Shown in pieces: positions 16,365-32,000 of a stretch of DNA of 32,000 bases (its first letter is position 1; each line of letters starts with the position of its first letter). A program made the position numbers and the translations under genes. Source of the stretch: Candidatus Velamenicoccus archaeovorus (GTDB lineage: Bacteria; Omnitrophota; Gorgyraeia; Velamenicoccales; Velamenicoccaceae); assembly GCF_004102945.1 (NCBI RefSeq), contig NZ_CP019384.1, forward strand, positions 1,830,001 through 1,862,000. Direction: 5' to 3'. The notes beneath the pieces were generated by a model. It was not told the DNA's origin. It did not search any database and saw only the letters and a list, made by a program, of their open reading frames with translations.

Positions 16365-16380
16365 AGAAACCCTTCATGTT

Positions 16381-16563: not shown

Positions 16564-16566
16564 CTA

Positions 16567-16617
16567 TTTTGTGCTCCAATCGCTATATCCCTTTATTTAT
16601 AGCAATATAGCACAAAA
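16567..16617. promoter_or_regulatory. Imperfect inverted repeat upstream of the RHH gene
   Basis: TTTTGTGC (16567-16574) and GCTATAT (16582-16588) pair with the contiguous ATATAGCACAAAA (16605-16617). The left arm carries a 7-nt insertion. Confidence 0.3.
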
Positions 16618-16651
16618 AGGCTGGATTGAGAAGGAAAAACTAAAGCAACCG

Positions 16652-17401
16652 CTAAGATAGTTTTTTGGCAATATCTCTAATGCCGGTGTCCGGATGCATA
16701 AGAAGTTTTTCTCTATCGTAGTCGATAAAATCAGGGTGGAGGGATATGCGGTATTGCTTTGATCCGTTATTCTCAATAAATTTCTGACCGTCTTTGTCCA
16801 GCAAGCTACCTTCTAAAGCCGTTCGGAGGTTACTATAAATCTGAAATTTTTCAACATCAGCAATTATCGTGTCGGAACCCAATCTATGCCTATGAACCCA
16901 GCCGTCCCTTTTCTTTTTCAATTCCAACACCAAACGGAGGAATAACTTGAATACCGAATCGCCGAGTTTTATTTTATGATTATTTACCTCGACTGCATTG
17001 CTTCGTCTCATCGGTATAGTACCCGGGATATAAACCTTGTCGTAGCATTTGTACTCAAAATTTTTGTAATCCTTATTCTGCTTTTCCGTCAGCTCTCTAA
17101 TGACAAGATCCGCCCCTATATTCGGCCTCAGCATTCCGGAAATAATCTCGCCGAGTAGTTTGCAAATTTGATTATCAAACGTCTTTCTGTAAATGCTCTC
17201 TTTCTTCATATGTTTTTTTAGGTCGAGGGCATCGCTGCGTGTTATCGGTGTAAAAACAACAAGGATGCTATTATCTTTATAAATATACTTTAAGGTAGAT
17301 AGCTTTAACAACCTGCCGTTGCCGATATTAAGAACGAAAACCAAGCCCGCTCTTCTACCGTTCCCTTTCTTGTTCGCTATATAAAAATATCCCTTTTTCA
17401 T
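16652..17401 (-). CDS. Hypothetical protein with possible C-terminal OmpR/PhoB-type winged-helix domain
   Basis: 249 aa, RBS AAGGATAGGGG. The C-terminal segment IKLGDSVFKLFLRLVLELKKKRDGWVHRHRL...IYSNLRTALEG...GSKQYRISL follows the Trans_reg_C pattern. The N-terminal ~130 aa is unrecognised. Confidence 0.45.
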   Translation of the reverse strand: MKKGYFYIANKKGNGRRAGLVFVLNIGNGRLLKLSTLKYIYKDNSILVVFTPITRSDALDLKKHMKKESIYRKTFDNQICKLLGEIISGMLRPNIGADLVIRELTEKQNKDYKNFEYKCYDKVYIPGTIPMRRSNAVEVNNHKIKLGDSVFKLFLRLVLELKKKRDGWVHRHRLGSDTIIADVEKFQIYSNLRTALEGSLLDKDGQKFIENNGSKQYRISLHPDFIDYDREKLLMHPDTGIRDIAKKLS

Positions 17402-17423
17402 CCCCTATCCTTGTCCTGCGGGT

Positions 17424-18629
17424 TTATTTAGACTCTTCCATGCCCGGAGGTCTTTTCCTCCATGGATAGCCTCCCGATGCCTCCTTAAATCCAAGATCAT
17501 AAAGCTCTCGCATTTCCGCGGGATCAAAAAGCTCTTTTGCTTTTGACACATGCGTTGCAGGAATATAGGCAAGATTAAAATCTCCCTTTCCATATTTAGT
17601 AAAAACGTACAACTGGTAAAGATCGCCTATGCCCTGAGCATTTATTATCGTGTCAACCGCACGCTCAGCAATTGCTGAAAGCCTATCCGGAACCTCTTTA
17701 TAGATAGGATCAACATAGCCGTTTCTTATTACATAGATTGCGTATTTAAGCTTAGATGCATCCATCCCCTTCTCTTTAAGAGCCTTGTCGAACCCCTGCA
17801 AAACATCGTGCAGAAAAAATACCTGCCTAGTTATGCCGCCGTCGACGTGCATCTCGTCGTACGTCTTATCATTGGCTTCTACATTCAGATATACCGGCGG
17901 GAAAGCAATCGGGATAGATGCCGACGCCAATATGACCTTGCGAAACAGCTTTAAAGCTTTATCATCTCCTATAGACGCGATTTTTCCCATATCCCAGATA
18001 ACCAGCCGCTGCGCATCTAAATTAGTAGTTCCGATGTAAAGCCTGCACCCTTTGGCATACTCAGCAGCTATTTGCTTCATCAATTCTGCATCAAAGTATT
18101 TCTCAATCAGACGCTCAAGCGGGCGGGTATTTGCAAAAGAATTAATAAACGGGATTCGTATTCGGACGATATCTCTCGTAGAATATTTTGTATAAAACTC
18201 TTTTAACTTGTAATCATATTCATTCCCGAGAAAGGCGATTGGCGCAATTATCGCTCCCGTGCTAATCCCTGTTACTACTTTAAAAACCGGACGCACCCCC
18301 GATTCACTCCAACCACTTAATAAACCGGCCCCGTATGCGCCCTCAGCAGCTCCTCCTGAAATAGCCAGCGCATATAAAGTCTGGCTATTATTAAAGTCAA
18401 AAAAAGAACTCTGTTCTTTTTTCTCTTGCTCTAATAATTTGATAAAATCTTCTTTGAAAGAATCACTAGGCATACCGCTGAATGCCCTGACATCCTGCAT
18501 GCCGAAAACCCGCGCGCTGCTTAATAAATCCGGAGGGACGGCATGCCGAACGCTTGCGCAACCGGAAATAAAAAAAGCGATCATGCTGAACAAGCATAAC
18601 CGCCTTCTTGTTCCTACCCACTTATACAT
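17424..18629 (-). CDS. Patatin-like phospholipase, predicted lipoprotein
   Basis: 401 aa. Lipobox FFISGC; oxyanion region ISGGAAEGAYGAG; GxSxG as GISTGA; catalytic Asp in HVDGGI. Confidence 0.85.
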   Translation of the reverse strand: MYKWVGTRRRLCLFSMIAFFISGCASVRHAVPPDLLSSARVFGMQDVRAFSGMPSDSFKEDFIKLLEQEKKEQSSFFDFNNSQTLYALAISGGAAEGAYGAGLLSGWSESGVRPVFKVVTGISTGAIIAPIAFLGNEYDYKLKEFYTKYSTRDIVRIRIPFINSFANTRPLERLIEKYFDAELMKQIAAEYAKGCRLYIGTTNLDAQRLVIWDMGKIASIGDDKALKLFRKVILASASIPIAFPPVYLNVEANDKTYDEMHVDGGITRQVFFLHDVLQGFDKALKEKGMDASKLKYAIYVIRNGYVDPIYKEVPDRLSAIAERAVDTIINAQGIGDLYQLYVFTKYGKGDFNLAYIPATHVSKAKELFDPAEMRELYDLGFKEASGGYPWRKRPPGMEESK

Positions 18630-19089
18630 GAGAACTCCCCATAGATTCTAAAGAATCAACGAGTATCGAGATTCCTCTTTCCATTATTTTTTTATCCTTT
18701 TCTTTTAGACCGTTAACGAGCGTCTCAAGAAACCGTTTTCTATGCTTTTCTAATTTTGCCAAATAATATCTCCCTTTGTCGGTAAGCGCGACAGTAACCT
18801 TCCTACGATCTTTCTCAGTCCGATGACGAACAACCAATTTGCGTTCAACAAGTCGATCGACAAGATTGGTCGCGAATGCACCGCTAACAGAGAGTTCTTT
18901 TTTTATTTTGTTCATCTCGCTCGGCTTGCCGCTACTTAAGAAATTTAATATTTGAAATTCTAAAAAACTTATCTTCTGAGATAAAAAATAACGTTTAGTA
19001 TGGACATGTAAACTCCTCATAAGCCTCTGAAGCAACTCGGAAAGCTTTAAATAATACGGCCTTTCAAACACAAAACTCACCTTTTTCAA
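18622..19089 (-). CDS. MarR family transcriptional regulator
   Basis: Winged-HTH core LEFQILNFLSSGKPSEMNKIKKELSVSGAFATNLVDRLVERKLVVRHRTEKDRRKVTVALTDKGR. The ORF-track start is TTG, so the true start is uncertain. It overlaps both neighbouring genes. Confidence 0.85.
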   Translation of the reverse strand: MKKVSFVFERPYYLKLSELLQRLMRSLHVHTKRYFLSQKISFLEFQILNFLSSGKPSEMNKIKKELSVSGAFATNLVDRLVERKLVVRHRTEKDRRKVTVALTDKGRYYLAKLEKHRKRFLETLVNGLKEKDKKIMERGISILVDSLESMGSSHV

Positions 19090-19630
19090 TAAGAGTTATG
19101 CCTACTGCAACCACCTCGGAATCGTATAGTGATCCGCTGTTTTGTTGAATTTCCTGCAAAGCATCCTCAATATTTAATGTTGGCCGATACACCTGTGGAG
19201 AAACCATCGTATCTACCACATCGGCAACTGAAATTATTTTTGTAACAGGATTAATCTCCTCGGCATGTAAGCCGAAAGGATATCCTGAACCATTCAATCT
19301 TTCATGGTGCTGAAGCGCAACCTCCGCTGCCATAGATTCGGACTTTATGTCTTTTAAAAGAGAATAGCCCAACTCCGGATGCTTTTTCATGATCTCAAAT
19401 TCATCATTATTCAGAGGGCCGCACTTATTAAGGATCTCCACCGGTATTTGAATCTTTCCAATATCATGAACGACTGCTGCAAAATGAATATGCTTAATAT
19501 CTGCGTCGGGGTGGCCAATTTTTTGAGCAATAGCACACGCAAGCCGAGCAACCCGACTTCCATGAGCATAAACCGCCTCATGTTCGCTTAACATTTTTAC
19601 GATTGAAAACAATGTGTCAAAATTTTTCAT
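19064..19630 (-). CDS. Stand-alone HD-GYP domain protein (putative c-di-GMP phosphodiesterase)
   Basis: 188 aa. Motifs HGSRVA, VVHDIGK and HHERLNGSGYPFGL. Confidence 0.85.
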   Translation of the reverse strand: MKNFDTLFSIVKMLSEHEAVYAHGSRVARLACAIAQKIGHPDADIKHIHFAAVVHDIGKIQIPVEILNKCGPLNNDEFEIMKKHPELGYSLLKDIKSESMAAEVALQHHERLNGSGYPFGLHAEEINPVTKIISVADVVDTMVSPQVYRPTLNIEDALQEIQQNSGSLYDSEVVAVGITLIEKGEFCV

Positions 19631-19634
19631 GCAT

Positions 19635-22600
19635 TTAATGTTTTATAAACCGCCTCTCAAAACGCTCCAGATACCAGAAGACTACCGGCACTAGAATAAA
19701 TGTAAAGATGATCGAAGCGAGCAATCCGCCGATCATCACCGCGCCCATAGACTGTTTAATTTTGCTTAAACTCCACAACTGCGGTAGAACGCCTAAAATA
19801 ATGGCAAACGAAGTCATAATAATCGCGCGGAATTTAGCTGAAGCGCCCTGCCAAAGCGCATCCTTAATCGCCAATCCCTCTTTCATCTTAACTAAGGTCT
19901 GATCCAGAAGCAGGATCGCGTTATTCACTACCATACCTACCAACATAACCATACCCATCATCGAAGCCACATTCATGCTCTGGTTAAGATAAAACAGCCC
20001 CAAGACCATCCCGGCGACGGAAGCAAGCACTGTAGTCATGACCGCCAAAGGATAAGCAATTAGTGAATTCATGATCGCGCACAACAGCATAAAGGTTAGG
20101 ATGATCGCCAAAAGAAACGCCCTGCCCAATTCAACATTTGTTTCTTCCATATACTCCGAATATCCCGAGTATTTATAGTTATAGCCGGAGGGAAAGTTAA
20201 TTGCCTTGAACTGTTTATCCAACTTCTTGCTGACGATAACCATGGAGCTCTTGCCCAGATACCCGTCAATTCGTATGATCCTGTTGCGATCGCGACGCCA
20301 GATGGTGGGAACAGCCTTATCGATTTTCAATTCTCCTAATTCATTGATAGGGATTAACCCTTTGCGCGAAAGAATTGATATTTCTTTAATATCGTCGAAA
20401 TTCCGAGCATAAACATCATCCATCTCCACGTTGACTTTATATTCTTCACCTTTTTCTTTGTAAATATTGGAATCCTCTCCGTAAATGGAGTATCGCATTA
20501 CTGCGCCCACGCTAGCTGCGTTGAGTCCGAACTCATTAAGTTTTTCCTCATTAGGAACCAAGCTCATCTGCTTCTTAGGGCTTTTATATGAAAGAACTAC
20601 GCTCTGAAAATCGCCGCTTTTATTCATGATATCTTTCATCTGTCTGGCCAGATCAACCATAACCGTGTAATCCGTGCCGTAAAGGTCTATAGCTACATCA
20701 CCTTCAGACATCGAGCTTATACCTTGCCGTACGCAATACGCTTCTACATCCGGCATCTTTGAGATGAAAACGATCAGATCGTCAATAATCTGCATATCGC
20801 TGCGTTTACGCTCGGTTGAAGGGATTAAATCCAGGGTAACCTTGGCGTTCTCTACTCCATTATTCCCAATATTAGACAAGTAAGCTCGTTTCTCTGGTAT
20901 CGTATCCAAGAAAGCTTCAATATGCTTGACCGCCTCTTCTGTACGTTCGACGGTTGAGCCTTGAGGAAGAGAAAGATTGATAATGACCTTATCTTCGTCG
21001 GACTTAGGCTGAAAATCATTTTCCACATAAGAGAAAAGTAAAAATGAACCGATCAGCGCCAAACAACAAAAAGCAATAGTCGAGCGCGGAAAACGGAACA
21101 TAAGCTCAAATATATGCTTATACTGCTTTTTAAGAAATTCCGTTAGTTTGTCCACGGAAATCGGAATCATTCTTATTCTAGAAATAACCATTTGCATCAG
21201 TCCGGGCCGGAAAGGTTTCTCAGTTTTTTGAGGTTGAAGCATTGCCGCGCACAACATTGGAGTCAATGAGAATGAGGCCAGCAATGAAAAGCAAGTAGCA
21301 TAAACCACTGTCAGACCGAATGATTTCATCATCAGCCCAACCATTCCACCCATCATAGCAATCGGCATGAATACAACAAGATTGGTGCCGGTAGAAGCAA
21401 TGACGGGAATTAAAACTTCCTTAGTCCCGTCTATCGCTGCCTTTTCCGGATTGTCGTGGCGGCTCAAATGTACCATCACGTTCTCTAAAATTACTAAAGC
21501 ATTGGATATAAGTGTTCCGATTACCGTAGCGATGGCAAGAAGGGTCATCATGTTAATGGAAAAACCCGACATCCACATAGGAAATAGCGTAGAGATAATC
21601 GAGGTAGGAATAATGATTGCAGAAATAAACGACATATCCCAACGCCCCAGAAACAGCAACAATAGGATTATGGTTAAAACGATTCCTATAAATATGTTCC
21701 GTTCGGTATCCAATGTTTCATTCGCGATAAAAGTAGTGGTGTCGGTAGCAATTTCCAGATGCATTCCCTGAGGTAGACTTTTCTGGAATTCCGCTAACCT
21801 CTTACGCATTTGATGAGAAATGAATACAGCGTTACCGTCGGAAGCTTTATTGACGGAAAGGCCAACTACAGGTTTACCGTTATAGCGAGCGACTGTAGAG
21901 ATTTTTTTATAGCTATCCTCGACTGCTGCAATATCCTTCAGGTGAAATTCACCGCCGTCGGATGAAACTAGAAGGGTATCGGCAATCTCTTTTACGCTTG
22001 TGAATTCTCCGGTAAAGCGCACGCTAAGAGCATCGTATCCCTTTTCAATATCCCCCGCAGGCACATTTTTATTGCGGGCCATGAGCGCCGCAATCACTTC
22101 GTTGATACTAATATAATGCTGCTTCATAAGCATGGGGTCCAAACGGACATTAATCTGCCGTTTCTCCCCTCCATATACGTCGACCTTGGCTACGCCACGT
22201 ATGGATGAAAATTTGGTCTTTAAGGTTTTATCCGCATATTCGTATACTTCGCGCAGATCACCGGAATCACTGCTTAAAACCATGTCCAACACCGGCTCAA
22301 TTAAAGGATCATATTTCTCTATTACCGGTTTTTCTATTGCATCAGGCAGGTCGTTAAGAATGGCCTCAACCTTGTCCTTAACTTCTATAGATTTGACGTT
22401 GACGTCTGCGGAAAGTAAGAATTCTACGAATATGTATCCGAAACTATCGTAAGACTGGCTTTTTATCTTCTTAATCTCGGAAATCTCAGAAATAGCGTCT
22501 TCAATCTTTTTGACTACCAGCGTCTCCACCTCCAAAGGATTCGCCCCCGGATAAGTCACGGAAACCGTCACAATCGGAAAATCAATCTTTGGGGTCTTCT

Positions 22601-22697
22601 CAATCATCAGATTGGAATAGCTGAAAAACCCCAAGACCACGAATACCAACACAAACATGACCGTGGTAATCTTATGTTTAACAAAAAATTCTATCAT
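19635..22697 (-). CDS. RND efflux transporter permease (AcrB/AcrD/AcrF family)
   Basis: 1020 aa. It has the 12-TM layout with two large periplasmic loops and family-typical N- and C-termini. ATGA overlap with the adaptor gene. Confidence 0.95.
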   Translation of the reverse strand: MIEFFVKHKITTVMFVLVFVVLGFFSYSNLMIEKTPKIDFPIVTVSVTYPGANPLEVETLVVKKIEDAISEISEIKKIKSQSYDSFGYIFVEFLLSADVNVKSIEVKDKVEAILNDLPDAIEKPVIEKYDPLIEPVLDMVLSSDSGDLREVYEYADKTLKTKFSSIRGVAKVDVYGGEKRQINVRLDPMLMKQHYISINEVIAALMARNKNVPAGDIEKGYDALSVRFTGEFTSVKEIADTLLVSSDGGEFHLKDIAAVEDSYKKISTVARYNGKPVVGLSVNKASDGNAVFISHQMRKRLAEFQKSLPQGMHLEIATDTTTFIANETLDTERNIFIGIVLTIILLLLFLGRWDMSFISAIIIPTSIISTLFPMWMSGFSINMMTLLAIATVIGTLISNALVILENVMVHLSRHDNPEKAAIDGTKEVLIPVIASTGTNLVVFMPIAMMGGMVGLMMKSFGLTVVYATCFSLLASFSLTPMLCAAMLQPQKTEKPFRPGLMQMVISRIRMIPISVDKLTEFLKKQYKHIFELMFRFPRSTIAFCCLALIGSFLLFSYVENDFQPKSDEDKVIINLSLPQGSTVERTEEAVKHIEAFLDTIPEKRAYLSNIGNNGVENAKVTLDLIPSTERKRSDMQIIDDLIVFISKMPDVEAYCVRQGISSMSEGDVAIDLYGTDYTVMVDLARQMKDIMNKSGDFQSVVLSYKSPKKQMSLVPNEEKLNEFGLNAASVGAVMRYSIYGEDSNIYKEKGEEYKVNVEMDDVYARNFDDIKEISILSRKGLIPINELGELKIDKAVPTIWRRDRNRIIRIDGYLGKSSMVIVSKKLDKQFKAINFPSGYNYKYSGYSEYMEETNVELGRAFLLAIILTFMLLCAIMNSLIAYPLAVMTTVLASVAGMVLGLFYLNQSMNVASMMGMVMLVGMVVNNAILLLDQTLVKMKEGLAIKDALWQGASAKFRAIIMTSFAIILGVLPQLWSLSKIKQSMGAVMIGGLLASIIFTFILVPVVFWYLERFERRFIKH

Positions 22698-23386
22698 TGA
22701 ATTTGTTCCTTTTTATCTGTTTCTCCGGCGTCTACCACCAGTAGCCGGTCATTATCCTCAAGCATACTCTGTCCGCTGAATATTACTTTATCGCCGGATT
22801 GCAATCCTTCGGAAATTATCGCGCCGTAGCCGTTGCGTAATCGAATAACCACTTTGCGTTTTTTGGCAAGACCGTTCTCATCCTTCCAAATAAAATATTC
22901 ATCTCCGGCAATATCCAGCACTTCATTGGGAACGGCTAATACATTATGTAGCGTCGAAGTATGAGCGCAAACCACAAACGCAACGCTCGGATCCCGAGAC
23001 TTATCAAACTCTACCTCTACCGGGAACATACCAGCGTCCATGTCTAGTTCCGCACCTATGCTTTTTAATCGAGCGCTAACAACGAATCTATCCTCCGGAT
23101 CGTATATCTCTTGTCCTTCCTGAAGCGCATTTTTAACTTCACCTGTAACAAACCCACGGGCAACCCGCCCGTCAACGATCCTGACCGTAAACTGAGCGTA
23201 AACGGGGACATCTCCGGCTTTAATCACCCGAACCTCAACCGGCTTTCCCGCCTTCTTCCATTCCCCATAGAAACTGACAATTGTCTTACCGCGTGCTGCC
23301 TTGACCGCGTGAATACGCAGTGGAACGGAAGCTAAACTAAGGATAATGATTATTAAATATATTGTTTTTCGCTTAAAGTTTTTCAT
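22694..23386 (-). CDS. Short RND periplasmic adaptor (MFP-like) subunit
   Basis: 230 aa with an N-terminal signal or anchor. Beta-rich C-terminal region (VLAVPNEVL...YFIWKDENG...KRKVVIRLRNGYGAIISEGLQSGDKVI). Positioned between the TolC and RND genes. Confidence 0.7.
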   Translation of the reverse strand: MKNFKRKTIYLIIIILSLASVPLRIHAVKAARGKTIVSFYGEWKKAGKPVEVRVIKAGDVPVYAQFTVRIVDGRVARGFVTGEVKNALQEGQEIYDPEDRFVVSARLKSIGAELDMDAGMFPVEVEFDKSRDPSVAFVVCAHTSTLHNVLAVPNEVLDIAGDEYFIWKDENGLAKKRKVVIRLRNGYGAIISEGLQSGDKVIFSGQSMLEDNDRLLVVDAGETDKKEQIQ

Positions 23387-24707
23387 GTTCGTATTTTTCG
23401 GTTATTAATTTCTCGATCTTTGACAGCGTTATATTTATGTTGTAAAGAGTGGCTTCCTTATTCAATCTTTGGTTAGTCAAAGAAAGTTCCGCAATATTGA
23501 GGTCGGTGATACTGACCTGACCTGAAGAAAACATCTCTTGCGTTTGTTTGAAGGCCTCTTCGGCAAGGCTCACTGCTTCAATGTTTGCCTTAAGATTATC
23601 CTTATACTGTTGGTATTCTAAGTAGGCTTTTTTAAGCTCCAGCAGTAGATTTCTTTCTACTTGTTTTTTCCTGAGAACGGCAATTTCTTTATTCGCTTTG
23701 GCTTGACTCAGTTGAGCTTCTTTTATTCCTCCTTCCCAAATCGGGATACTTACCTTAAGACCGGCGGCAGAGTAATTATCAAGCTCATCTTTTTTCAAAA
23801 AACTATTTTCATTGGAATCCCCTTTGTAATTCATAGAAGCAAAAGCAGAAATCGTAGGTAAAAAACTGGCGTATTTACTCTTTACGCTTGCTTCGGCAGA
23901 ATCGATTGATTTCTCAAGCCCCTGCAAAGAAGGCTCGTATGCATACATAGCACTCACCAGCGTTTCATAATTAAAATCTGTGTATTGTTCTTGAAAATTT
24001 CCCTCAAGTTCAATCTTCCGGTCAAAATCAACATCAATAACCCTTCTTAATGTTTCGATGGCCGCATCAAATTGTGTGCGGGCTTCATTGACTGCCGGAA
24101 TCCTAGCCGCGACATCAGCATTTATTTTAACAATTTCATATTTCGAGCTACGACCTCCGTAAGAGCGTTGACCGATTAACTTTTTATTTTCAAGAACATC
24201 GGCATATGATTTCTCGGCTATAGATAGGGTATTTTTAGCAAGAAGACAGCTATAGTAGCTTAATTTTGCGGCAAAAATCACATCTTGTCTGCTTGCTTCC
24301 CTATTCAAACGAGTCGCTTCAACAGCATTCTTAGCTGAATCTATTGCATACATCACTTTGCCAAACGACCAAATAAGCTGTGAAGCGCTTATGCCGTTAT
24401 CTAAGGAATGATCGTGATACTTACCGGTGGCTTTATCCGGATAATCCATATTGTTTGTCCAAACAGATTGGCCGCTGATATGCGGTAACGCCTCTGAGCG
24501 GACTTCCCCGTAAACACCTTTACTTTTCTTAATCTCGCTATCCTTTATCTTTAATTCTTCACTAGTATCCAGCGCCCTCTGAACGGTTTCCTCAAGGCTA
24601 ATCTTTAAAACGGTTTCCTCTCGGGAATTATCCGCATAAGCGCCAACGTTAAAGGTAAGCGCAACAATAGTGCTTAAGCTTGTAATAAATACAGATAGTT
24701 TTTTCAT
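23373..24707 (-). CDS. TolC-family outer membrane efflux protein
   Basis: About 444 aa from ATG 24707 (the ORF-track start 24713 is GTG). Signal peptide MKKLSVFITSLSTIVALTFNVGAYA. Two OEP-like repeats with coiled-coil character. Confidence 0.85.
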   Translation of the reverse strand: MKKLSVFITSLSTIVALTFNVGAYADNSREETVLKISLEETVQRALDTSEELKIKDSEIKKSKGVYGEVRSEALPHISGQSVWTNNMDYPDKATGKYHDHSLDNGISASQLIWSFGKVMYAIDSAKNAVEATRLNREASRQDVIFAAKLSYYSCLLAKNTLSIAEKSYADVLENKKLIGQRSYGGRSSKYEIVKINADVAARIPAVNEARTQFDAAIETLRRVIDVDFDRKIELEGNFQEQYTDFNYETLVSAMYAYEPSLQGLEKSIDSAEASVKSKYASFLPTISAFASMNYKGDSNENSFLKKDELDNYSAAGLKVSIPIWEGGIKEAQLSQAKANKEIAVLRKKQVERNLLLELKKAYLEYQQYKDNLKANIEAVSLAEEAFKQTQEMFSSGQVSITDLNIAELSLTNQRLNKEATLYNINITLSKIEKLITEKYEHEKL

Positions 24708-24775
24708 TATCACACCGTCACCCTAATATTAATCACGAAACCCTCTATTACGCTGCTCGTGAACATTCTATCAAT

Positions 24776-24828
24776 TTGTGAACAACTGTTCACAAATAAA
24801 GCATACCATTCATTTAGTGGCTTGTCAA
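24776..24828 (-). promoter_or_regulatory. Promoter plus palindromic TetR-type operator of the efflux operon
   Basis: Minus strand TTGACA (24828-24823), 17 nt, TATGCT (24805-24800). This is followed by the perfect palindrome TTGTGAACAACTGTTCACAA (24776-24795). Confidence 0.6.
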
Positions 24829-24876
24829 GGTAAATGATTTTGTAAAGAGTTCTCTGAGGAAATACTAAAAGGCAGG

Positions 24877-25488
24877 TTATTTACTTGCGGCACCGTATAG
24901 AAACAACCTAAGAATTGTATCGGATAGACCTACTAAACTTTCTTCTTTTCTTTTTTTCTTTTGTAACCACTTAAGAGTAATCGTTTTTAAAATAGATTCG
25001 AGCACATTGCTGATTTGCTCCGGGTCAAAATTACTATTAACAACCCCTTGCCCTTGCGCCTCCTTCAGCAGGCTTTCCGTGTATTCTTGCAATTGCAAGC
25101 CAATGGATGATTTTAAGAATCTTGTTTCAATGTATGACTCACTACCCTCCGAGACAAATATCTGAAAAAAATCCTGATTTTTCTCGAAGAAAACTAAACT
25201 TTCCTGTATAAAAATCTCCAGCTTCTTTTTCGAATCTTTCACTTGCCCTACTTTCTCTTTAATCAAAGCTAATAAGCACTTTAACTTTTCTTCAAGCAAA
25301 GCAAAATAAAGAGTGTCCTTGTTCTTAAAATGTAGATAAACCGTCCCCGTTCCGTATTGAGCTTCTTTTGCGATATCTCTTATTGTTGCCTTGTGATATC
25401 CTTTCAAAGCAAATACATGCTCTGCCGCTTTGAAAATGTCGGATCTGCGTAATTGCCTATCTCTCTCTTTTCTATTTAATATAGCCAT
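24877..25488 (-). CDS. TetR/AcrR family transcriptional regulator
   Basis: 203 aa. N-terminal HTH IFKAAEHVFALKGYHKATIRDIAKEAQYGTGTVYLHFKNKDTLY. RBS GAGGGGG. Confidence 0.9.
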   Translation of the reverse strand: MAILNRKERDRQLRRSDIFKAAEHVFALKGYHKATIRDIAKEAQYGTGTVYLHFKNKDTLYFALLEEKLKCLLALIKEKVGQVKDSKKKLEIFIQESLVFFEKNQDFFQIFVSEGSESYIETRFLKSSIGLQLQEYTESLLKEAQGQGVVNSNFDPEQISNVLESILKTITLKWLQKKKRKEESLVGLSDTILRLFLYGAASK

Positions 25489-25517
25489 TTATCCCCCTCA
25501 CGAACACTGTTTAATTA

Positions 25518-25568
25518 ATGAACAATGGTTCATAAATAGAATATACCATCTATTTTTACTTTTGTCAA
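25518..25568 (-). promoter_or_regulatory. Promoter plus near-palindromic operator of the tetR gene
   Basis: Minus strand TTGACA (25568-25563), 17 nt, TATATT (25545-25540), then ATGAACAATGGTTCAT (25518-25533, one mismatch). The ~47-nt module matches the module at 24771-24817 at 34 of 47 positions (hand alignment). Confidence 0.6.
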
Positions 25569-25684
25569 ATCAAACCCAGCAGTACTCTGTTTATTCCTTA
25601 AAATAAAATTTCCGTAGCTATCCATGTATATGCCCGTGGAACTCACAGCAGGTATTGGGCTTTCTTTACTACGACTATTTCTTT

Positions 25685-25951
25685 TTATAAAACCGACTCC
25701 TGCAATTTTCCGGTCATGACATCCAGCATCTGAAAATGCGTAACGCCCGCATCCTTCCACTGCTGTTCGATCGTGATCGACCATTTACCCAGCGGCATGA
25801 CCCGCTGGATCTCCCGCAGACGCAACTTTGCGGCCGGAAGATGATCCCGCATCCGGCCCGACACCGGAATGTTTTCGACGTACGTCTCCTCGCCGCCGTT
25901 CCTGACGCTGATATACCGCGTCTTTTTTGCCGTCATGTTTTCACGAACCAT
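25685..25951 (-). CDS. Hypothetical protein
   Basis: The ORF-track ORF is 25685..25984. The start was moved to ATG 25951 (MVRENMTAKKTRYISV...), which has AAGGAGG 8 nt upstream. No family recognised. Confidence 0.5.
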   Translation of the reverse strand: MVRENMTAKKTRYISVRNGGEETYVENIPVSGRMRDHLPAAKLRLREIQRVMPLGKWSITIEQQWKDAGVTHFQMLDVMTGKLQESVL

Positions 25952-26013
25952 AATCATCCCCTCCTTTCGAGGGTATAGGGCCATACGGTTTAATAGTTGG
26001 CAAGGCCTTTGTC

Positions 26014-26346
26014 TTAGAAATCTACCCGCACCCCGGCCTTGGCTCCGACCCCTTTTCGGTCATCGGATTCAGCGAAACCGTACCCCTCGACAAACGGATG
26101 AACCTCAAGCCCGGACTTCTTCTCTTCGCGCTTTTGATCAATAGTGACCTGCGCACCGGGCTGGGCGATGATATGCGTTTCCTGCTTCGTGGTTTGAGTC
26201 GGCATGAAGAAAGCCTTATAGATCGTCAATCCGATAAGCCCGATCGCCGCGATCCCGATCGCGTAACGCGCGGTCTTGACCCACGGCAACCACTGAACAA
26301 AACTTCCCAAAAACTTAAGGATGCTAAATCTTTCGTTTTCCGCCAT
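26014..26346 (-). CDS. Hypothetical membrane protein (one TM)
   Basis: 110 aa with TM segment ARYAIGIAAIGLIGLTIYKAFF. Its start overlaps the preceding small ORF. Confidence 0.55.
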   Translation of the reverse strand: MAENERFSILKFLGSFVQWLPWVKTARYAIGIAAIGLIGLTIYKAFFMPTQTTKQETHIIAQPGAQVTIDQKREEKKSGLEVHPFVEGYGFAESDDRKGVGAKAGVRVDF

Positions 26347-26443
26347 CCTGCACCTTGCCTTTTAACCACAAATAAAAGAACATCCCCAATCCCCCAACCA
26401 CCGCGCCCAGCGCGAAGGCAATAACCAGCTTGATCGTAATCAT
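26324..26443 (-). CDS. Unannotated 39-aa single-TM peptide
   Basis: Below the ORF-track cutoff. Hand translation: MITIKLVIAFALGAVVGGLGMFFYLWLKGKVQDGGKRKI. Its ATG (26443-26441) overlaps the TGA (26442-26440) of the upstream gene. Its 3' end overlaps the next gene by 23 nt. Confidence 0.45.
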   Translation of the reverse strand: MITIKLVIAFALGAVVGGLGMFFYLWLKGKVQDGGKRKI

Positions 26444-26712
26444 TGCGCCACCCCTTTCTTTAAGTCCTTCCTCAGCTCATCAATCGCCTTGATGATCCGG
26501 TCGTTCTCCTTTTCGATAAACCGGCTCTGCATATCGAACTCGGCCTTGGACACATACAAGGCCCGCGGCATGTGAATCTCGTCATTCGCCAGATGATGAA
26601 ACAGTTTCTCATCGATGCGGTTGACCTGCGTAATGATCGTGCCGAGCATGAAAATAACGATCGTCACCAATACCGGCGTGATGAACCTTGTCCAGTTTCC
26701 TTCACTCTTCAT
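26440..26712 (-). CDS. Hypothetical membrane-anchored coiled-coil protein
   Basis: Start trimmed to ATG 26712 (MKSEGNWTRFITPVLVTIVIFMLGTIITQV...), 4 nt after the stop of the upstream 59-aa ORF. One TM plus a helical C-terminus. Confidence 0.6.
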   Translation of the reverse strand: MKSEGNWTRFITPVLVTIVIFMLGTIITQVNRIDEKLFHHLANDEIHMPRALYVSKAEFDMQSRFIEKENDRIIKAIDELRKDLKKGVAQ

Positions 26713-26716
26713 AAAC

Positions 26717-26896
26717 CTATCCGATCTTCTTGATGTCATCATCGATGAGCGCGATCTGCTCATCGATCTTCTCCCTGCGCTTCACAAACATCTGCTTCGC
26801 AGTAGTTAAACTTTCCTTCGAATGCTCCCGCTTTTCGCCGGAAGGATACGTCACAATCTTCTTGCCGTCTTTGAATTCAATTGTAGGTTTTGCCAT
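26717..26896 (-). CDS. Unannotated 59-aa hypothetical protein
   Basis: Below the ORF-track cutoff. Hand translation: MAKPTIEFKDGKKIVTYPSGEKREHSKESLTTAKQMFVKRREKIDEQIALIDDDIKKIG. Strong RBS AAGGAGGA 6 nt upstream. Confidence 0.55.
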   Translation of the reverse strand: MAKPTIEFKDGKKIVTYPSGEKREHSKESLTTAKQMFVKRREKIDEQIALIDDDIKKIG

Positions 26897-26911
26897 TTGA
26901 AATCCTCCTTT

Positions 26912-27463
26912 TTATGCCTGCCCGCCGCGAACCGGCAGAACGTAACACATATCCCAAGGTCTGCCCCATGTCGTTTTGTACCCGTCATACGGATACATAC
27001 ACCACGCACCATCTGTCCAAGATACACAAACAGTTGAAGACCAATATGGCGTCCACATATCAGGCATAGGGGTAAAAACCATCGGATCAAACGCAGGGCT
27101 GTATCTTGAATGATCCACAATCGACATCAACTCATTAATATTCGGCATGCGCCAATCGTCATGCCCTGCAAAGAAAAGATTCTCACATGCATTAATCGCG
27201 TCATACCAGTACATCGTCATTCCAAACCCGGCCATCTGCAAATCCTTGACCCACATAAGGCCGGTCACGGTATCGACTACCGTCCCGTCACCGTTATCAA
27301 TAAACCTTTGACCTCCGCCAAGCGGATACCCCATCTGGTAATAGCCGTCATCACCCATCTGATAACTCATCATCTGCCCGGTTTTCGGCAGACCGCCATT
27401 CGTGACGATTTCATTGACCCGGGTGATGATCCGGTTCTTTTTCTGGTGTTTAATATGATCCAT
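26912..27463 (-). CDS. DUF1566 (Lcl C-terminal-like) domain protein
   Basis: 183 aa. TGLMWVKD...MTMYWYDAINACENLFFAGHDDWRMPNINELMSIV matches the DUF1566 pattern. RBS AAAGGAGGG. Confidence 0.8.
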   Translation of the reverse strand: MDHIKHQKKNRIITRVNEIVTNGGLPKTGQMMSYQMGDDGYYQMGYPLGGGQRFIDNGDGTVVDTVTGLMWVKDLQMAGFGMTMYWYDAINACENLFFAGHDDWRMPNINELMSIVDHSRYSPAFDPMVFTPMPDMWTPYWSSTVCVSWTDGAWCMYPYDGYKTTWGRPWDMCYVLPVRGGQA

Positions 27464-27477
27464 TTTGCGCCCTCCTT

Positions 27478-27768
27478 TTAACCTTCGTAAGTGACCGTAA
27501 TTTTTCCGTCATCATCGCCCGCCTTTATCACTCTAAAATCCTTGATGTGATAAATCGACGGAAGCTCAACGATATCGCCCTCCTCCAAAAGCACGCCCGA
27601 TGCCGCGCTCGGATTCTGGCCGTTGACGAAATATCGCATGTCACCGCCCTCGGCCGTAATCATCGCAAACGATGCCGAAACCCCGTTGCCCGGGTTATAA
27701 ACCGCCGGGGTCAATGCCACGGCCATACCACTGACCACAATTTCTTCATGATTGATAACTTTTGCCAT
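27478..27768 (-). CDS. Hypothetical 96-aa protein
   Basis: RBS AAGGAGGGA. Beta-rich sequence with no family recognised. Tightly packed between the rSAM and DUF1566 genes. Confidence 0.65.
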   Translation of the reverse strand: MAKVINHEEIVVSGMAVALTPAVYNPGNGVSASFAMITAEGGDMRYFVNGQNPSAASGVLLEEGDIVELPSIYHIKDFRVIKAGDDDGKITVTYEG

Positions 27769-27780
27769 TGCCGTCCCTCC

Positions 27781-28944
27781 TTATGTTTTCTTTAACGCTT
27801 CCAAGATTTCCTCGTTCTGTTTGGCCACATCCACCAAGACCTGCCCGACTGTGAAAAGCATGCGCTCCCGCCTGTCCGCCAGCTCGACCGGCAGAAAGCC
27901 CAGCGCCTGCTCGCTTTCGACCGCACATATCCGGCAGTATTTCGTAACCGGAACAGTCAGCTCCTGATTGACCTTGTAGTGCGTGATCACGCAACTGTGG
28001 CAGGTCCGAGCGTGCGGGCAGTTTTTCCAGCATCCGGTGTACTCCTTGTCGATATTGAGGAATATTCCGCGGATAAACGGTCGCACCTCGAAGATATTCC
28101 CCAGCTTAAATATTCGCGCGCTCGCCGCCCTGTGGCATGGATAAACGTCGCCGTTCTCCAGAACCGCGATATAGGTCTTGCCCGCCTGACAGTATTCCTT
28201 CTCCGGCGGCACCTCATCATTGACGATCTTGAGCGGTTTATCGATAAACGCAATCTCGATCGGCAGGCCCTGCCGCTTGCAGTACCGGCGATAGTGATAA
28301 ATCTGCGTCAGTTGATAACGGTATTGCTCGACCGCATCCTGAGTCCAATCCTCTTCCATGACCGCGTGATGCATGATCTTCGTAATGCCCAGCTCGTGCA
28401 GGTACTGCACGTTGATCGCCAACCGCCCGACCGTCTTGGGCGTAAACGTCATCCGAACACTCATATCCGGTTTGATGGCCAGAATTTTCTTTATGTTTTC
28501 GATAATGCGCGGATAGTCGCCGTGCCGGTATTCGGTATGCGTGATCTCATCGCCGTCACAACTGACCTGAACTGCCATTCCCAGCTCGGCAAATTTCTTG
28601 AACACCGTCTCATCGAAATACATGCCGTTTGTTGATATCGAAAAGGTCGAGGTGTGCCGCCCGTCTTTATCCGGCGACCACAGCTCCCGGGCATAAAGAG
28701 CCAGCTCCAAAACTGTCTGTGGATACAGAAGCGGCTCACCGCCGAAGAACGTTATCTGCAGGCCCGCAGGGCTTATTTCCTTCATCCGGGCAAGAATCTT
28801 CTTTCCCTGCTCGACCGACAGCACCGCCTCACCCTTAGGATGAAAACAGTAATCGCATTTCATGTTGCACTGTTCAGTGATGAACAGATCGATGCTCTTT
28901 ATTTCGTCTTTGGATTTGCCGCCGACCAATTCCGCGTTAGACAT
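27781..28944 (-). CDS. Radical SAM/SPASM domain protein (third of three)
   Basis: CX3CX2C as EQCNMKCDYCFH; GGEPLL. C-terminal SPASM-type Cys clusters (CQAGKTYIAVLENGDVYPC; GCWKNCPHARTCHSC; YCRIC). The ORF-track start 28989 is TTG. ATG 28944 (MSNAELVGG) with GGGAGAAAG upstream is used here. Confidence 0.9.
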   Translation of the reverse strand: MSNAELVGGKSKDEIKSIDLFITEQCNMKCDYCFHPKGEAVLSVEQGKKILARMKEISPAGLQITFFGGEPLLYPQTVLELALYARELWSPDKDGRHTSTFSISTNGMYFDETVFKKFAELGMAVQVSCDGDEITHTEYRHGDYPRIIENIKKILAIKPDMSVRMTFTPKTVGRLAINVQYLHELGITKIMHHAVMEEDWTQDAVEQYRYQLTQIYHYRRYCKRQGLPIEIAFIDKPLKIVNDEVPPEKEYCQAGKTYIAVLENGDVYPCHRAASARIFKLGNIFEVRPFIRGIFLNIDKEYTGCWKNCPHARTCHSCVITHYKVNQELTVPVTKYCRICAVESEQALGFLPVELADRRERMLFTVGQVLVDVAKQNEEILEALKKT

Positions 28945-30022
28945 GAACTTTCTCCCGTTTCTCTTTTTCCAATTGGATATATTTATCAATGACCTTGGCC
29001 AGAACCTTGTTCATGGCGCAGTAGCCCGGCTCGGGCTTTAACATGTCACCCATATGCTCAAGGTTAAGGCCCAGACATTTATTGCGCGGGCACCGCTTGT
29101 ACAGCTCGCAACTCTCGCAAAATCTGCCCAGATACTTCTCGCGGCTCTCATCGATCTCCCAAACGTAATCCAGCTTCGAATAATCGATGCCGTCATAAAC
29201 CGATCCCAGCCGGTTATGCCTGCAGATGTACATGTTGTCGCACTGCCAGATACCGCCTTCGGTATCGATAAAAATCCGCTCAAGGCCCGTCCGGCAAAAG
29301 TGAAACTCTCGTACCTGCGCCTTAAGCCCGAACTCCCGCACATAGGCGTTGCTGTGAAGAGCCGGATTAAGCGTCTGAAAAAGCTCCGCGTCTTTTTCGT
29401 GCTCGATAAGAAGTTCGAAATACTGCGCCGCGAACCTCTCCAAATCCTCTTGGCTGTGATCGTGTCGGGTTGCAAGGTCGATCGTGATATTGCGGGTGAT
29501 ATTCCGCGCGATAAAATCAAAATCCTCTTTCAGTTTCCCGTATTCAACGACCATGAAATTGACGTTATGGTTCGGGTTTTCTCTTACCAGCTTCAGCATC
29601 CACGGCTCTGCCTCGGCCTTCCAATGAGGCCCGCCGTATTTCTCATAGCAATTTCCGAACGACCATGTGATCCCGATGTTGCGATGCCGCGCGAAAAACT
29701 CATACATCCGCTCATCAATCAATGCGCCATTGGTGTTCATGTGAAACAGCATCTGCGGGAACCTCTCCATCACATGCCGGATGACCTCGAAATTCACCGT
29801 CGGCTCGCCTCCCCAAAAGTAGATCGTGAATTTGGGTGCCAGCTGAAGTTTTGAGAAACAAAAGTCCAGAATATCGTCCGCGGTCTGTTTCGACATCTTC
29901 ACCGGCCCGAGCGTCGATACCTTGTGCCTCTCGAACAAACCTCTGCGGTAACAGAACGAACAATTCGCATTGCACGCGTGCGTGAGATATAAATAAACCG
30001 ATTTATAGAGAGGGATCCTCAT
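28937..30022 (-). CDS. Radical SAM/SPASM domain protein (second of three)
   Basis: 361 aa. CX3CX2C as HACNANCSFCY; GGEPT. SPASM Cys clusters (FCRTGLERIFIDTEGGIWQC; CESCELYKRCPRNKC; YCAMN). ATGA overlap with the upstream rSAM gene. Confidence 0.9.
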   Translation of the reverse strand: MRIPLYKSVYLYLTHACNANCSFCYRRGLFERHKVSTLGPVKMSKQTADDILDFCFSKLQLAPKFTIYFWGGEPTVNFEVIRHVMERFPQMLFHMNTNGALIDERMYEFFARHRNIGITWSFGNCYEKYGGPHWKAEAEPWMLKLVRENPNHNVNFMVVEYGKLKEDFDFIARNITRNITIDLATRHDHSQEDLERFAAQYFELLIEHEKDAELFQTLNPALHSNAYVREFGLKAQVREFHFCRTGLERIFIDTEGGIWQCDNMYICRHNRLGSVYDGIDYSKLDYVWEIDESREKYLGRFCESCELYKRCPRNKCLGLNLEHMGDMLKPEPGYCAMNKVLAKVIDKYIQLEKEKREKVHV

Positions 30023-31242
30023 TTGCGCACCGCCCCCTTGTGATACAGCACGTCGATACCGGTCTCGATCGCCTTCTTGGCGATGTATTCATATGTGGCC
30101 GTTTCAATCCGGTTCGCCCAGCAGTGATTCGCCGCCGGTTTCAATGGATTGCCGGTCACGGTGTAATTCTCAGCCAAGCACATTGCCCGCGGGCAACAGC
30201 GGATATCGCCGTCAAAACAAACCTCGCAATCCCTGCAATGCTCGTAAAGCTCATCGATCCAATCGCCCATCTTTTTGAAAAAGAATGCCGTATCGTTAAA
30301 CCCGCTCCACACATCCCCGATCTTGAACTCCGGATAATTGGCAAAAAAATCGCACGGGTATATCTCGCCCTTGTTATTCACAGCCAGATACAGATACCCG
30401 CACCCGCAAAACGTGGGCGGCACGTCCTTGAGCGCGATACCTTTCAACTTGCGATAAATGTTGTTTTTTAACGCAATATCCCATTGACTCCGTCCGAACT
30501 TCGGCTTGCCTGAAAAGTAAACGTAATCCGCAACGCGCCTAAACAAGTCCTTGAACTGCTCGTTCTTGTCCCTGACCATATCCCAATGCCGGGCCGAGGA
30601 TATCCGCACCACTGGCACACCGTATTCATAAAGCCTGATAATCTCCTCATAGATCCCCGGCCGCTCCGAATCATCGACCACATAATGAACGTCTCCGCCG
30701 TTGGCCTTCACAAGATCAAGCACCTCTCCTGCCTTATCCAGATATCCCTCTCCCAGAACGCCGCGCAAAGCCGATATGCTGACGCTCAAATTGAGGTGGT
30801 ATTTATGCCTCAAAACCCATTCCCGAATGCCCGGATCATTCAAAAGAACCAACCCGTTTGTTGTCACCACATAGCGGTACATGCAATAGGTATCGCAAAG
30901 GTACTGCACCATTGGAAAATTCAAGAACGGCTCACCGCCGAATATACTGAACTTGACGCGCCTCTCATCGAACGTGCGTGAGGCCCAGTCCTCGGCCGCA
31001 TCAATAACATCCCGCGTGATCCCGCTGTCCTTCTGCCTGAATTCCTTGGGCTGATAGCAATAAGCACAGCGCAGATTGCAGTCCTGCGTCATCAGAAAAT
31101 AAACCGTGGTGTATTCCTGCTTGCCGTCCGTTATCGAACCGATATCGAACATTCCCTCGGCCTTGTACCGCTTGATCACCTCACGGCACTGTAACGGCAA
31201 ATCGCCGCACGCCTTGCTATTCTTAAGCTCAAATACCGGCAT
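30019..31242 (-). CDS. Radical SAM/SPASM domain protein (first of three)
   Basis: 407 aa. CX3CX2C as QDCNLRCAYCY; GGEPFL. SPASM Cys clusters (FCGCGYLYLAVNNKGEIYPC; CRDCEVCFDGDIRCCPRAMC; HCW). RBS GGAGGA. It overlaps the upstream gene by 14 nt. Confidence 0.9.
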   Translation of the reverse strand: MPVFELKNSKACGDLPLQCREVIKRYKAEGMFDIGSITDGKQEYTTVYFLMTQDCNLRCAYCYQPKEFRQKDSGITRDVIDAAEDWASRTFDERRVKFSIFGGEPFLNFPMVQYLCDTYCMYRYVVTTNGLVLLNDPGIREWVLRHKYHLNLSVSISALRGVLGEGYLDKAGEVLDLVKANGGDVHYVVDDSERPGIYEEIIRLYEYGVPVVRISSARHWDMVRDKNEQFKDLFRRVADYVYFSGKPKFGRSQWDIALKNNIYRKLKGIALKDVPPTFCGCGYLYLAVNNKGEIYPCDFFANYPEFKIGDVWSGFNDTAFFFKKMGDWIDELYEHCRDCEVCFDGDIRCCPRAMCLAENYTVTGNPLKPAANHCWANRIETATYEYIAKKAIETGIDVLYHKGAVRK

Positions 31243-31624
31243 TAATCCTCCAGTCCAGCTTGCTTAAGCCCGGCTCGATCTCCTCGATATCCAGCCCAAG
31301 CCTGTCTTTGAAGACCGTGCGATGCGTATCATTAAGCGCAACTACATGCGAGGCATAAATCTTGTCCCTGTGCTTCCCAGCCAGAAACAAAACAAACGCC
31401 GAAATATTGCCCTTGTCGCCCTCGACTCCCAGCTCCTGATAAACCTCGCATAGCGCATCTATGAGCGCTTGAACGCTCATGAACCGCTTATGCGTGAAAC
31501 ATTGAACGGTCAATTCATCGAGATTATTCCTGCACCAGTTAACCAGCTCGCTGACGGCGTTCTCGCCTTCCAGCCGCGCGATCCTGAACGATACTTCCTG
31601 TGCCTTTACCTGATCCTGAAACAT
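31229..31624 (-). CDS. Hypothetical 131-aa protein between the Cys-rich gene and the rSAM genes
   Basis: The ORF-track ORF (31229..31747) was trimmed to ATG 31624 (MFQDQVKAQEVSFRIARLEG...), which has GAGGA upstream and lies 4 nt after the stop of the Cys-rich ORF. No family recognised. Confidence 0.6.
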   Translation of the reverse strand: MFQDQVKAQEVSFRIARLEGENAVSELVNWCRNNLDELTVQCFTHKRFMSVQALIDALCEVYQELGVEGDKGNISAFVLFLAGKHRDKIYASHVVALNDTHRTVFKDRLGLDIEEIEPGLSKLDWRINAGI

Positions 31625-31628
31625 TTCC

Positions 31629-32000
31629 TCACCATGAATAAGGGTTACATTTACAATTCCACGCGCTATGGTTATGCCCGCCCGAATACTCGCACGTCCC
31701 CCAGTTCGATCCCGGCGGCGTATATACACACCAGTCCCACGGCACATAGCCGTCCCAAGCCACTGTCGACAACGGATTGCCGGATGCCGACTTGTACGGA
31801 TGCTCTGTTACCGAAGGCAAGTTGATGCTGGCGCAAATCCAGTAATGATTGATCGAGTGGTGGCATTCCGAATATTTATGGTCATCGCACGCCACGCCCG
31901 CGTGAGAACAGGTCGTATAGTGATATCCGCAGTCCGCGCAATACTGGCACTGCTCAGTTTCACAGATACAGCCGGTCATGAGCGCCTGAACTTTCTGCAT
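31629..32000 (-). CDS. Cys/Trp/His/Tyr-rich protein or peptide (candidate rSAM substrate); N-terminus at or beyond the window edge
   Basis: 123 aa are visible. My count gives 13 Cys, 7 Trp, 9 His and 10 Tyr. It ends ...GGHNHSAWNCKCNPYSW and lies directly upstream of the rSAM genes on the same strand. The first in-frame codon at the window edge is ATG, but the true start cannot be verified. Confidence 0.65.
   Translation of the reverse strand: MQKVQALMTGCICETEQCQYCADCGYHYTTCSHAGVACDDHKYSECHHSINHYWICASINLPSVTEHPYKSASGNPLSTVAWDGYVPWDWCVYTPPGSNWGTCEYSGGHNHSAWNCKCNPYSW

Follow-up and report, generated by a model that had tools for sequence, protein, structure and literature searches.

Radical S-adenosylmethionine (rSAM) enzymes with a SPASM domain are already known as maturases of Cys-rich polypeptides. 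PapB joins Cys to Asp or Glu, accepting spacings of 0-6 residues (PMC9413430). QhpD, working in the cytoplasm, forms three Cys-Asp/Glu thioethers within an enzyme gamma subunit which is mostly coil, the thioethers replacing disulfides used by a related enzyme (PMC7876137). The locus described here lies at the end of a 32,000-nucleotide stretch of the genome of Candidatus Velamenicoccus archaeovorus (contig NZ_CP019384.1, positions 1,830,001 to 1,862,000), referred to below as the window, and consists of a gene for a Cys-rich protein followed by three rSAM genes. The new element would be a putative substrate of 245 aa encoded in a phage tail module, with three dedicated paralogous enzymes and no recognisable RRE (recognition element of RiPPs, the peptides made on ribosomes and then modified post-translationally), peptidase or exporter. 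The reading we consider moderately probable is that the C-terminal domain of this protein is a tail fibre tip cross-linked by its three dedicated maturases.

Within the window the Cys-rich gene occupies 31629..32000 on the minus strand (372 nt, that is 123 codons and the stop), with the rest lying beyond the window edge. Its translation contains 13 Cys, 7 Trp, 9 His and 10 Tyr in 123 residues (31.7% together), which reproduces exactly the counts given in a first-pass annotation of the window, and the Cys-spacing and aromatic motifs quoted there were also present. With the pooled amino acids of the 27 other window genes as the baseline, the binomial tail probabilities were 5e-9 (Cys), 6e-4 (Trp), 4e-4 (His) and 0.02 (Tyr), falling to 3e-14 when all four residues were counted together. 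The same annotation had suspected that the open reading frame (ORF) runs past position 32000 and had proposed extending the contig to find its start. This was borne out by a metagenome contig, L001 (JGI 3300010429), which is 100% identical to window positions 27457..32000 (4,544 nt) and places the true start 366 nt past the edge, with a GGGAGAG ribosome-binding site 5' of it. The full ORF encodes 245 aa, so that what looks like a start ATG at the edge of the window is a Met codon inside the gene; the full-length sequence used here was taken from L001. Compared with related loci, the ORF differed by 7 synonymous and 0 non-synonymous codons, 28 and 3, 40 and 7, and 43 and 13, respectively. Synonymous differences far exceed non-synonymous ones in every comparison, and the ORF is a real gene under purifying selection.

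The three rSAM genes, designated rSAM_A, rSAM_B and rSAM_C, lie on the same minus strand. The rSAM_A gene (30019..31242) encodes 407 aa with the motif C55x3C59x2C62 and conserved Cys at positions 279, 297, 336, 339, 350, 355 and 374. The rSAM_B gene (28937..30022), the start of which overlaps the rSAM_A stop (ATGA), encodes 361 aa with C17x3C21x2C24 and lacks an N-terminal extension. The rSAM_C gene (27781..28944) encodes 387 aa from an ATG overlapping the rSAM_B stop, its longest ORF being 402 aa from a TTG at 28989, and its product, with the motif beginning at residue 41, is the most conserved of the three. Among 22-30 orthologues of each enzyme (30 for rSAM_A) the Cx3Cx2C motif was 100% conserved, and each enzyme had seven conserved C-terminal Cys. 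The Pfam Radical_SAM model (PF04055) scored above cut-off for all three, with 1.9e-16 for rSAM_C. The SPASM domain was above cut-off in rSAM_C (Pfam, 5.2e-5) and in rSAM_A (TIGR04085), and was assigned in rSAM_B by the Cys pattern only. The best NCBIfam match was PapB in each case (6.5e-30 for rSAM_A, 3.7e-29 for rSAM_B and 5.7e-49 for rSAM_C), followed by the SCIFF (9.5e-31 for rSAM_C), CXXX-repeat, nif11, CcpM and QhpD maturases. The best solved structure for rSAM_C was CteB (5wgg, E 4.5e-21), the alignment covering CteB residues 92-428 and excluding its N-terminal RRE. The nearest characterised relatives of the three enzymes, PapB, CteB/SCIFF and QhpD, all form Cys thioethers. Mutual identity of rSAM_A, rSAM_B and rSAM_C is only 18-24%; they are thus old paralogues retained next to one another, and this suggests that they serve different sites or reactions. 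An anSME-type formylglycine target was considered and rejected, as the C/S-x-P/A-x-R motif is absent from the 245-aa protein and the anSME model scores weaker than PapB.

On the minus strand of the window the genes follow each other in the order Cys-rich gene, a gene for a 131-aa protein, rSAM_A, rSAM_B, rSAM_C, a gene for a 96-aa protein, an Lcl_C/DUF1566 gene and several small genes. Start and stop codons within this cassette overlap or sit a few bases apart, and no excess of promoter- or terminator-like sites was seen across the operon. The earlier statement that the Cys-rich ORF shares strand and operon with the three maturases therefore stands as to strand and coupling, with the correction that the 131-aa gene intervenes before the first rSAM gene. 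The arrangement is retained throughout the family. An rSAM gene came next in 51 of 51 family loci having at least 800 nt of downstream DNA, and orthologues of A, B and C were found in this order in 32 of the 33 loci having at least 4.2 kb, the one exception (L051) carrying A and C only. The linkage persists where identity has dropped to 32-50%, and it is seen in tail modules of both the siphovirus-like and the myovirus-like kind. In the reverse test, searching IMG/VR with the rSAM_C profile, every locus of at least 30% identity had a triple-repeat Cys-rich gene upstream. One contig (L091) starts within the cassette, its upstream ORF being reduced to the Cys-rich 3' end. Weaker IMG/VR matches, below 30% identity, were unrelated 319-aa rSAM proteins. 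A tblastn search of GenBank phages (INPHARED) with rSAM_C gave only matches below 30% identity, one of which, H1, was rejected as a representative of the same system since it was read by eye as a bacterial SCIFF-type maturase beside a SecDF-like membrane protein. Prophage copies of the cassette were found in 11 cases in metagenome-assembled genomes, on contigs of up to 820 kb, the genomes being labelled Candidatus Omnitrophota (7), 'Planctomycetales' (3) and Saccharibacteria (1). Taken with the best scores of the enzymes to thioether maturases, the adjacency and the conserved A-B-C order mean that the proposal of an rSAM substrate, made in the first-pass annotation, holds as far as sequence allows.

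The 245-aa protein consists of an N-terminal triple-repeat domain (residues ~8-132; N-domain) and a 113-aa Cys/aromatic-rich C-terminal domain (133-245; C-domain), of which the window encodes the entire C-domain and the last helix of the N-domain. The repeats, [W/F]TDPxxT..(S/T)..(V/I)R..H..(E/Q)L, or in short form 'TDPxxT…R..H..ELR', are located at residues 17-37, 55-75 and 102-122. An AlphaFold2 model built on a 45-sequence alignment gave the N-domain as three helices linked by extended segments, with predicted local distance difference test (pLDDT) values of 82-95. The C-domain had a pLDDT of 26-60 in the full-length model and a mean of 54 when modelled alone with 59 sequences, as would be expected if its fold depends on cross-links. 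The C-domain carries the motifs CxCExExCxYCxDCGY ... WxCKCNPY[ST]W, and over 59 family members 11 of its 13 Cys (133, 135, 140, 143, 146, 153, 160, 168, 178, 238 and 240) were at least 93% conserved. C213 was conserved to 75% and C225 to 53%; the latter is nearly always accompanied by the former (both in 30 sequences, C225 alone in 1). Conservation was also high for E136, E138 and D145 (at least 97%), N182 and N241 (at least 92%), W210 and W222 (100%) and W236 (98%). Five Cys conserved to at least 90% have a similarly conserved Asp, Glu or Asn at +3, namely C10-N13, C92-D95, C133-E136, C135-E138 and C238-N241. The segments separating the conserved Cys differ in sequence and length, for example the loop 183-203. 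The retention of Cys and aromatic positions in homologues, which the first-pass annotation had asked about, was thus observed for Cys and Trp. Its inclusion of His in the signal did not survive, as none of the nine His attains 80% conservation.

The Cys-rich family is small: clustering at 90% identity gave 45 clusters, and a search of 1.84 billion proteins yielded 14 representatives at the 50% identity level. The 123-aa fragment found no match in a word-indexed homology search, and the relatives appeared with the full-length query. The 245-aa protein had no match in Pfam, PHROG or NCBIfam, none by Foldseek against PDB and BFVD, none by tblastn against GenBank phages (INPHARED), and only a chance-level one (E 0.05) in a PDB profile search. 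For one homologue (P0007, 64% identity) the source database holds a precomputed match to Pfam entry PF27469.1, an accession absent from the Pfam release scanned here, in which P0007 had no match; this presumably very recent entry may cover part of the family, probably the repeat domain. The N-domain alone gave 145 matches with a wider spread than the full family. Precomputed Pfam domains in these proteins include fn3 (PF00041), PF18998, PF17957 and Peptidase_S74, and fusions to Ig-like domains also occur. Several matches are cellular proteins with putative signal peptides, as judged by eye from their N-termini. On phage contigs, four N-domain proteins (P0065, P0085, P0130 and that of L093) bear other Cys-rich tails unrelated in sequence, and in four loci (L052, L053, L054 and L093) such unrelated tails adjoin rSAM genes within tail modules. 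Two cellular N-domain loci had no rSAM neighbour, and one cellular homologue with a Cys-rich tail adjoins a thiol-reductase-like gene (GILT). The idea that three repeats serve as three enzyme docking sites found no support, because the L051 protein (P0044) has three repeats with two rSAM genes, and cellular three-repeat proteins have none.

Two of the loci examined showed further features. On L054, a contig from ERR11523672, the second gene past that for P0130, which bears S74, spans 2886-3743 and encodes a 285-aa protein with one TDP..R..H..LR repeat, a CQxCQ/CNCNCGCGCC stretch and then a C-terminal region starting 'CC FVDGTLVLMADGT', which, judged by eye, looks like a Hint/intein-type autoprocessing domain. 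In L095 (IMGVR_UViG_3300031555_003801, 5911-8949), two adjacent rSAM genes are followed by a gene for a 228-aa protein with a C-terminal CGYNCSCNYNCGYNCNYNCCNHNC-type Cys/Asn repeat; lying downstream and not upstream of the rSAM pair, it may represent a further kind of substrate within this broad class.

The conserved Cys could instead mean that the C-domain is a Zn- or Fe-S-binding module of a tail protein, with the rSAM enzymes acting elsewhere, for instance on a different tail protein, on a nucleotide or on some molecule of the host. The run C140-x2-C143-x2-C146-x6-C153, together with the further Cys, resembles cluster and Zn spacings, and no autonomous fold is predicted for the C-domain. 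Metals do occur in phage tail tips, as Fe in T4 gp37 (His-Fe sites) and as an Fe-S cluster in lambda gpL. On the other hand, the near-invariant Cys of the C-domain are odd in number (11), and a conserved His/metal site was rejected, no His being conserved. No metal-binding family, an identity that the first-pass annotation would have taken as refuting, turned up in Pfam or NCBIfam. A metal-binding module would leave unexplained the adjacency to SPASM maturases in 51 of 51 loci, the characterised relatives of which act on Cys-rich polypeptides, and also the rSAM adjacency of the unrelated Cys-rich tails. This explanation is considered unlikely.

The location of the gene bears on what the protein is used for. 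A phage contig with 93% nucleotide identity to the window (L011, IMGVR_UViG_3300029959_001261) carries, upstream of the Cys-rich gene, the tape measure gene and genes for gpM-like, gpL (PF05100), gpK (NlpC/P60) and a 1205-aa gpJ (phrog_31, 1e-159). Between gpJ and the Cys-rich gene come two small ORFs and one of 174 aa without Pfam or PHROG match. The side tail fibre genes of lambda sit after J, and by position the Cys-rich gene occupies their place. In family members of 50-58% identity the Cys-rich gene follows other siphovirus-like tail genes (L007, after the tape measure, and L010) or the myovirus baseplate genes gpV, PAAR and gp25 (L008/L009), and the three rSAM genes are again downstream. 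In a homologue of 331 aa (P0053), the WxCKCxPF motif runs straight into a Peptidase_S74 domain (PF13884, 9e-14), an intramolecular chaperone typical of trimeric tail fibres and spikes. The P0053 locus keeps the downstream A-B-C cassette (42%, 31% and 53% identity), and two further proteins, P0130 and P0135, combine the N-domain with a CQxCQ-rich stretch and Peptidase_S74. The domain is absent from the 245-aa protein of the window itself. The guess that the visible ORF is the C-terminal domain of a larger, possibly phage-like protein proved right, in that the gene for the 245-aa product closes a tail module of a prophage.

A second alternative is that the cassette is a phage-borne RiPP-like 'moron', the Cys-rich C-terminus being cross-linked and then, instead of being built into the virion, released to act as a toxin, as a signal or in superinfection exclusion. 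The cassette travels as a unit among unrelated tail modules, its enzymes resemble RiPP maturases, and a conserved N-terminal region with a Cys-rich C-terminal 'core' mimics a leader-core layout. However, no leader peptidase, C39/ABC exporter or immunity gene was present in any cassette. The supposed leader is a confidently predicted 130-aa fold which is also fused to fn3, Ig-like and S74 domains, and one family member bears the tail-fibre trimerisation chaperone domain. In addition, the cassette always lies within the tail block, where it immediately follows the fibre or baseplate genes in the same orientation and with coupled translation. The moron reading seems quite unlikely. It is highly improbable that the protein is a tail-fibre component with ordinary disulfides formed after release and the rSAM enzymes are assembly factors or coincidental neighbours, since, although cellular N-domain homologues with Cys-rich tails bear putative signal peptides (by eye) and one lies beside GILT, suggesting disulfide chemistry in that case, the hosts look anaerobic (rubrerythrin, DsrE and Nitro_FeMo-Co genes adjoin), disulfides would not last in anoxic, reducing habitats, the number of Cys is odd, and coincidental retention of three oxygen-labile Fe-S enzymes in 32 of 33 loci is implausible.

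The gene structure, its conservation and synteny, the enzyme class and the location in a tail module are established by the data above. From them we infer that the protein is a substrate of the enzymes, which type of cross-link it would carry, and that it belongs to the virion and binds a receptor; a cross-linked fibre tip could arise as follows. A temperate phage infecting Candidatus Omnitrophota would produce the 245-aa protein, encoded in its tail-fibre/tail-tip block, at a late stage of infection. In the presumably anaerobic cytoplasm of the host, where disulfides could not form, the three diverged maturases, often with a ~130-aa accessory protein, would install several intramolecular covalent cross-links in the C-domain, each maturase serving a subset of the sites. 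Most probably these would be thioethers like those of ranthipeptides and QhpC, joining the Cys sulfur to a carbon of Asp, Glu or Asn. In the Trp/aromatic-rich second half, C-C or Cys-Trp links may be formed instead or additionally, between which the sequence does not discriminate. The product would be a small knotted domain, resistant to reductant and protease, located at the far tip of a tail fibre that is probably a trimer, with the variable loops between conserved Cys contacting the host surface. The N-domain could serve in fibre attachment, as a retained enzyme-docking element, or both.

Several points weigh against a cross-linked fibre tip. Both the cross-links and the presence in the virion rest on genomic inference, and gene linkage indicates a functional connection which is not necessarily that of enzyme and substrate. 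The named maturase families all matched far below their curated cut-offs, the best scores being 102-167 bits against 340 for PapB, and such matches leave open whether the reaction would be thioether, cyclophane, Cys-Trp or other cross-linking. No RRE domain was recognised in the three enzymes or the 131-aa protein using family libraries and the CteB alignment, and the N-termini of the enzymes leave no space for one, the radical SAM motifs starting at residues 55, 17 and 41 in A, B and C; the 131-aa protein may still hold an RRE that escaped recognition. Neither did the neighbouring genes, here or in related loci, include a leader peptidase, C39/ABC exporter or immunity gene, and recognition of the usual RiPP kind is therefore not apparent. 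The CX2CX2C stretch fits a metal or Fe-S site equally well, the low AlphaFold confidence of the C-domain may just mirror a shallow alignment, and neither sequence nor fold searches linked the protein to a known fibre or receptor-binding protein.

If the fibre tip is cross-linked as proposed, rSAM cross-linking would reach beyond small secreted peptides and one periplasmic enzyme subunit to structural proteins of the virion, and would offer phages of strict anaerobes a route to a covalently stabilised, disulfide-free receptor-binding module. Three co-evolving maturases acting on one protein without a recognisable RRE would bear on how sites are recognised and ordered. The C-domain would be a natural scaffold of ~110 aa, its staples conserved and its loops variable, which could interest those engineering reductant-stable binders, and the system would give a handle on the phage biology of uncultivated Omnitrophota. 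We propose only tentatively, as somewhat less likely than not, that the fibre tip, which would owe its fold to several non-reducible links made by the three enzymes, is the first case of RiPP-style rSAM maturation of a virus particle protein, and that it belongs to a wider class in which phages of anaerobes encode, within their tail modules, triple-repeat N-domains with diverse Cys-rich tails, each paired with rSAM enzymes. The full-text literature yielded no account of tail fibres or virion proteins modified by rSAM enzymes, but its coverage was incomplete, so that prior work is possible; one candidate paper was set aside as it concerned an unrelated cyanophage gene.

Of the other genes in the cassette, that of the acidic 131-aa protein (31229..31624, minus strand; pI 5.3) has its ATG 4 nt past the stop codon of the Cys-rich gene and overlaps the start of rSAM_A by 14 nt at its 3' end. 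The protein had no Pfam, PHROG, NCBIfam or PDB match, and its fold is unassigned. Genes of ~125-145 aa located 3' of rSAM_C in other cassettes encode homologues of it (hhalign 96%, E 1e-9) (L007:14216-14593, L010:14222-14596 and L068:5631-6068), the position in the cassette being variable, and no homologue was detected in L008/L009, L050 and L051. The 131-aa protein is therefore a frequent fifth component of the cassette. Directly after rSAM_C, and preceded by an AGGAGG ribosome-binding site, lies the gene of the 96-aa protein (27478..27768, minus strand), which has no assigned role. It is followed on the same strand by the gene of a 183-aa Lcl_C (DUF1566) protein (26912..27463; Pfam PF07603, 2.9e-27). 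The two genes are co-conserved downstream of the rSAM genes in the lambda-like lineage and absent from other lineages; they are best treated as context. The last small genes of the prophage block (25677..26900, minus strand) encode 59, 107, 110 and 99 aa, two of them with putative hydrophobic stretches as judged by eye.

Homology between the window and L011 ends at ~25677 (L011:14693), just past the conserved 99-aa gene (25685..25984). At this point the GC content falls from 51% to 40%, and beyond it L011 carries different DNA including a BrxA (BREX) gene, so ~25677 is probably the prophage/host junction; no tRNA was present in the window and no att repeat was identified at the prophage end. 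A block of ~17.6 kb with ~40% GC (8000..25680) lies between the 51% GC prophage end and housekeeping genes of 53% GC at 1-8 kb (rubrerythrin, TrmO, DsrE-like, Nitro_FeMo-Co, ABC transporter and GT2). It contains SIR2-like genes at 8089..9102 (weak match) and 12657..13859, a HerA helicase gene (10877..12667), genes for an N6/N4 DNA methylase, a HEAT-repeat protein, a patatin, MarR, an HD protein and a TetR regulator, and three large genes (19635..24713) read by eye as a putative RND-type efflux set. The SIR2 and HerA genes are reminiscent of a described anti-phage pair, and the whole block looks like a horizontally acquired defence or efflux island beside the prophage.

Among described systems, the metal-stabilised tips of T4 gp37 and lambda gpL share with the present protein, as it is read here, a small Cys- or His-rich element that would stabilise the tip of a tail structure, and assembly in a reducing cytoplasm. 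In those tips, however, stabilisation is by metal coordination without dedicated enzymes, whereas here the His are unconserved and three maturases are linked. Tail fibres and spikes with Peptidase_S74 are similar in the distal position of the gene in the tail module and in having a conserved proximal and a variable distal domain, and the homologues P0053, P0130 and P0135 end in S74. The window protein differs from them in lacking S74 and homology to known shafts or tips, and covalent rSAM-dependent maturation is, to our knowledge, not a feature of S74 fibres. The ranthipeptide/SCIFF systems (PapB-PapA for freyrasin; CteB-CteA) provide the best NCBIfam and PDB matches of the three enzymes, and have in common with them the rSAM and SPASM domains with two auxiliary clusters and a maturase gene adjoining that of a Cys-rich substrate with conserved acidic residues. 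There, a single maturase acts on a peptide of ~45-50 aa; here, three diverged maturases would act on a 245-aa protein with a folded N-domain, with no RRE, peptidase or exporter and in the setting of a phage tail module. In the QhpD-QhpC system of the quinohemoprotein amine dehydrogenase gamma subunit, one enzyme modifies a substrate of ~110 aa with a cleaved 28-residue leader, and the qhp operon includes a protease, an exporter and a flavoprotein, the product being part of a periplasmic enzyme and not of a virus. None of the qhp operon neighbours (QhpA, B, E, F and G) occurs here, and TIGR03906 scores of 52-64 bits compare with a cut-off of 453. QhpD is nevertheless among the significant matches of all three enzymes, and in both systems an rSAM/SPASM enzyme introduces, here presumably, several thioethers in the cytoplasm, in place of disulfides, into a protein that stays a structural subunit.

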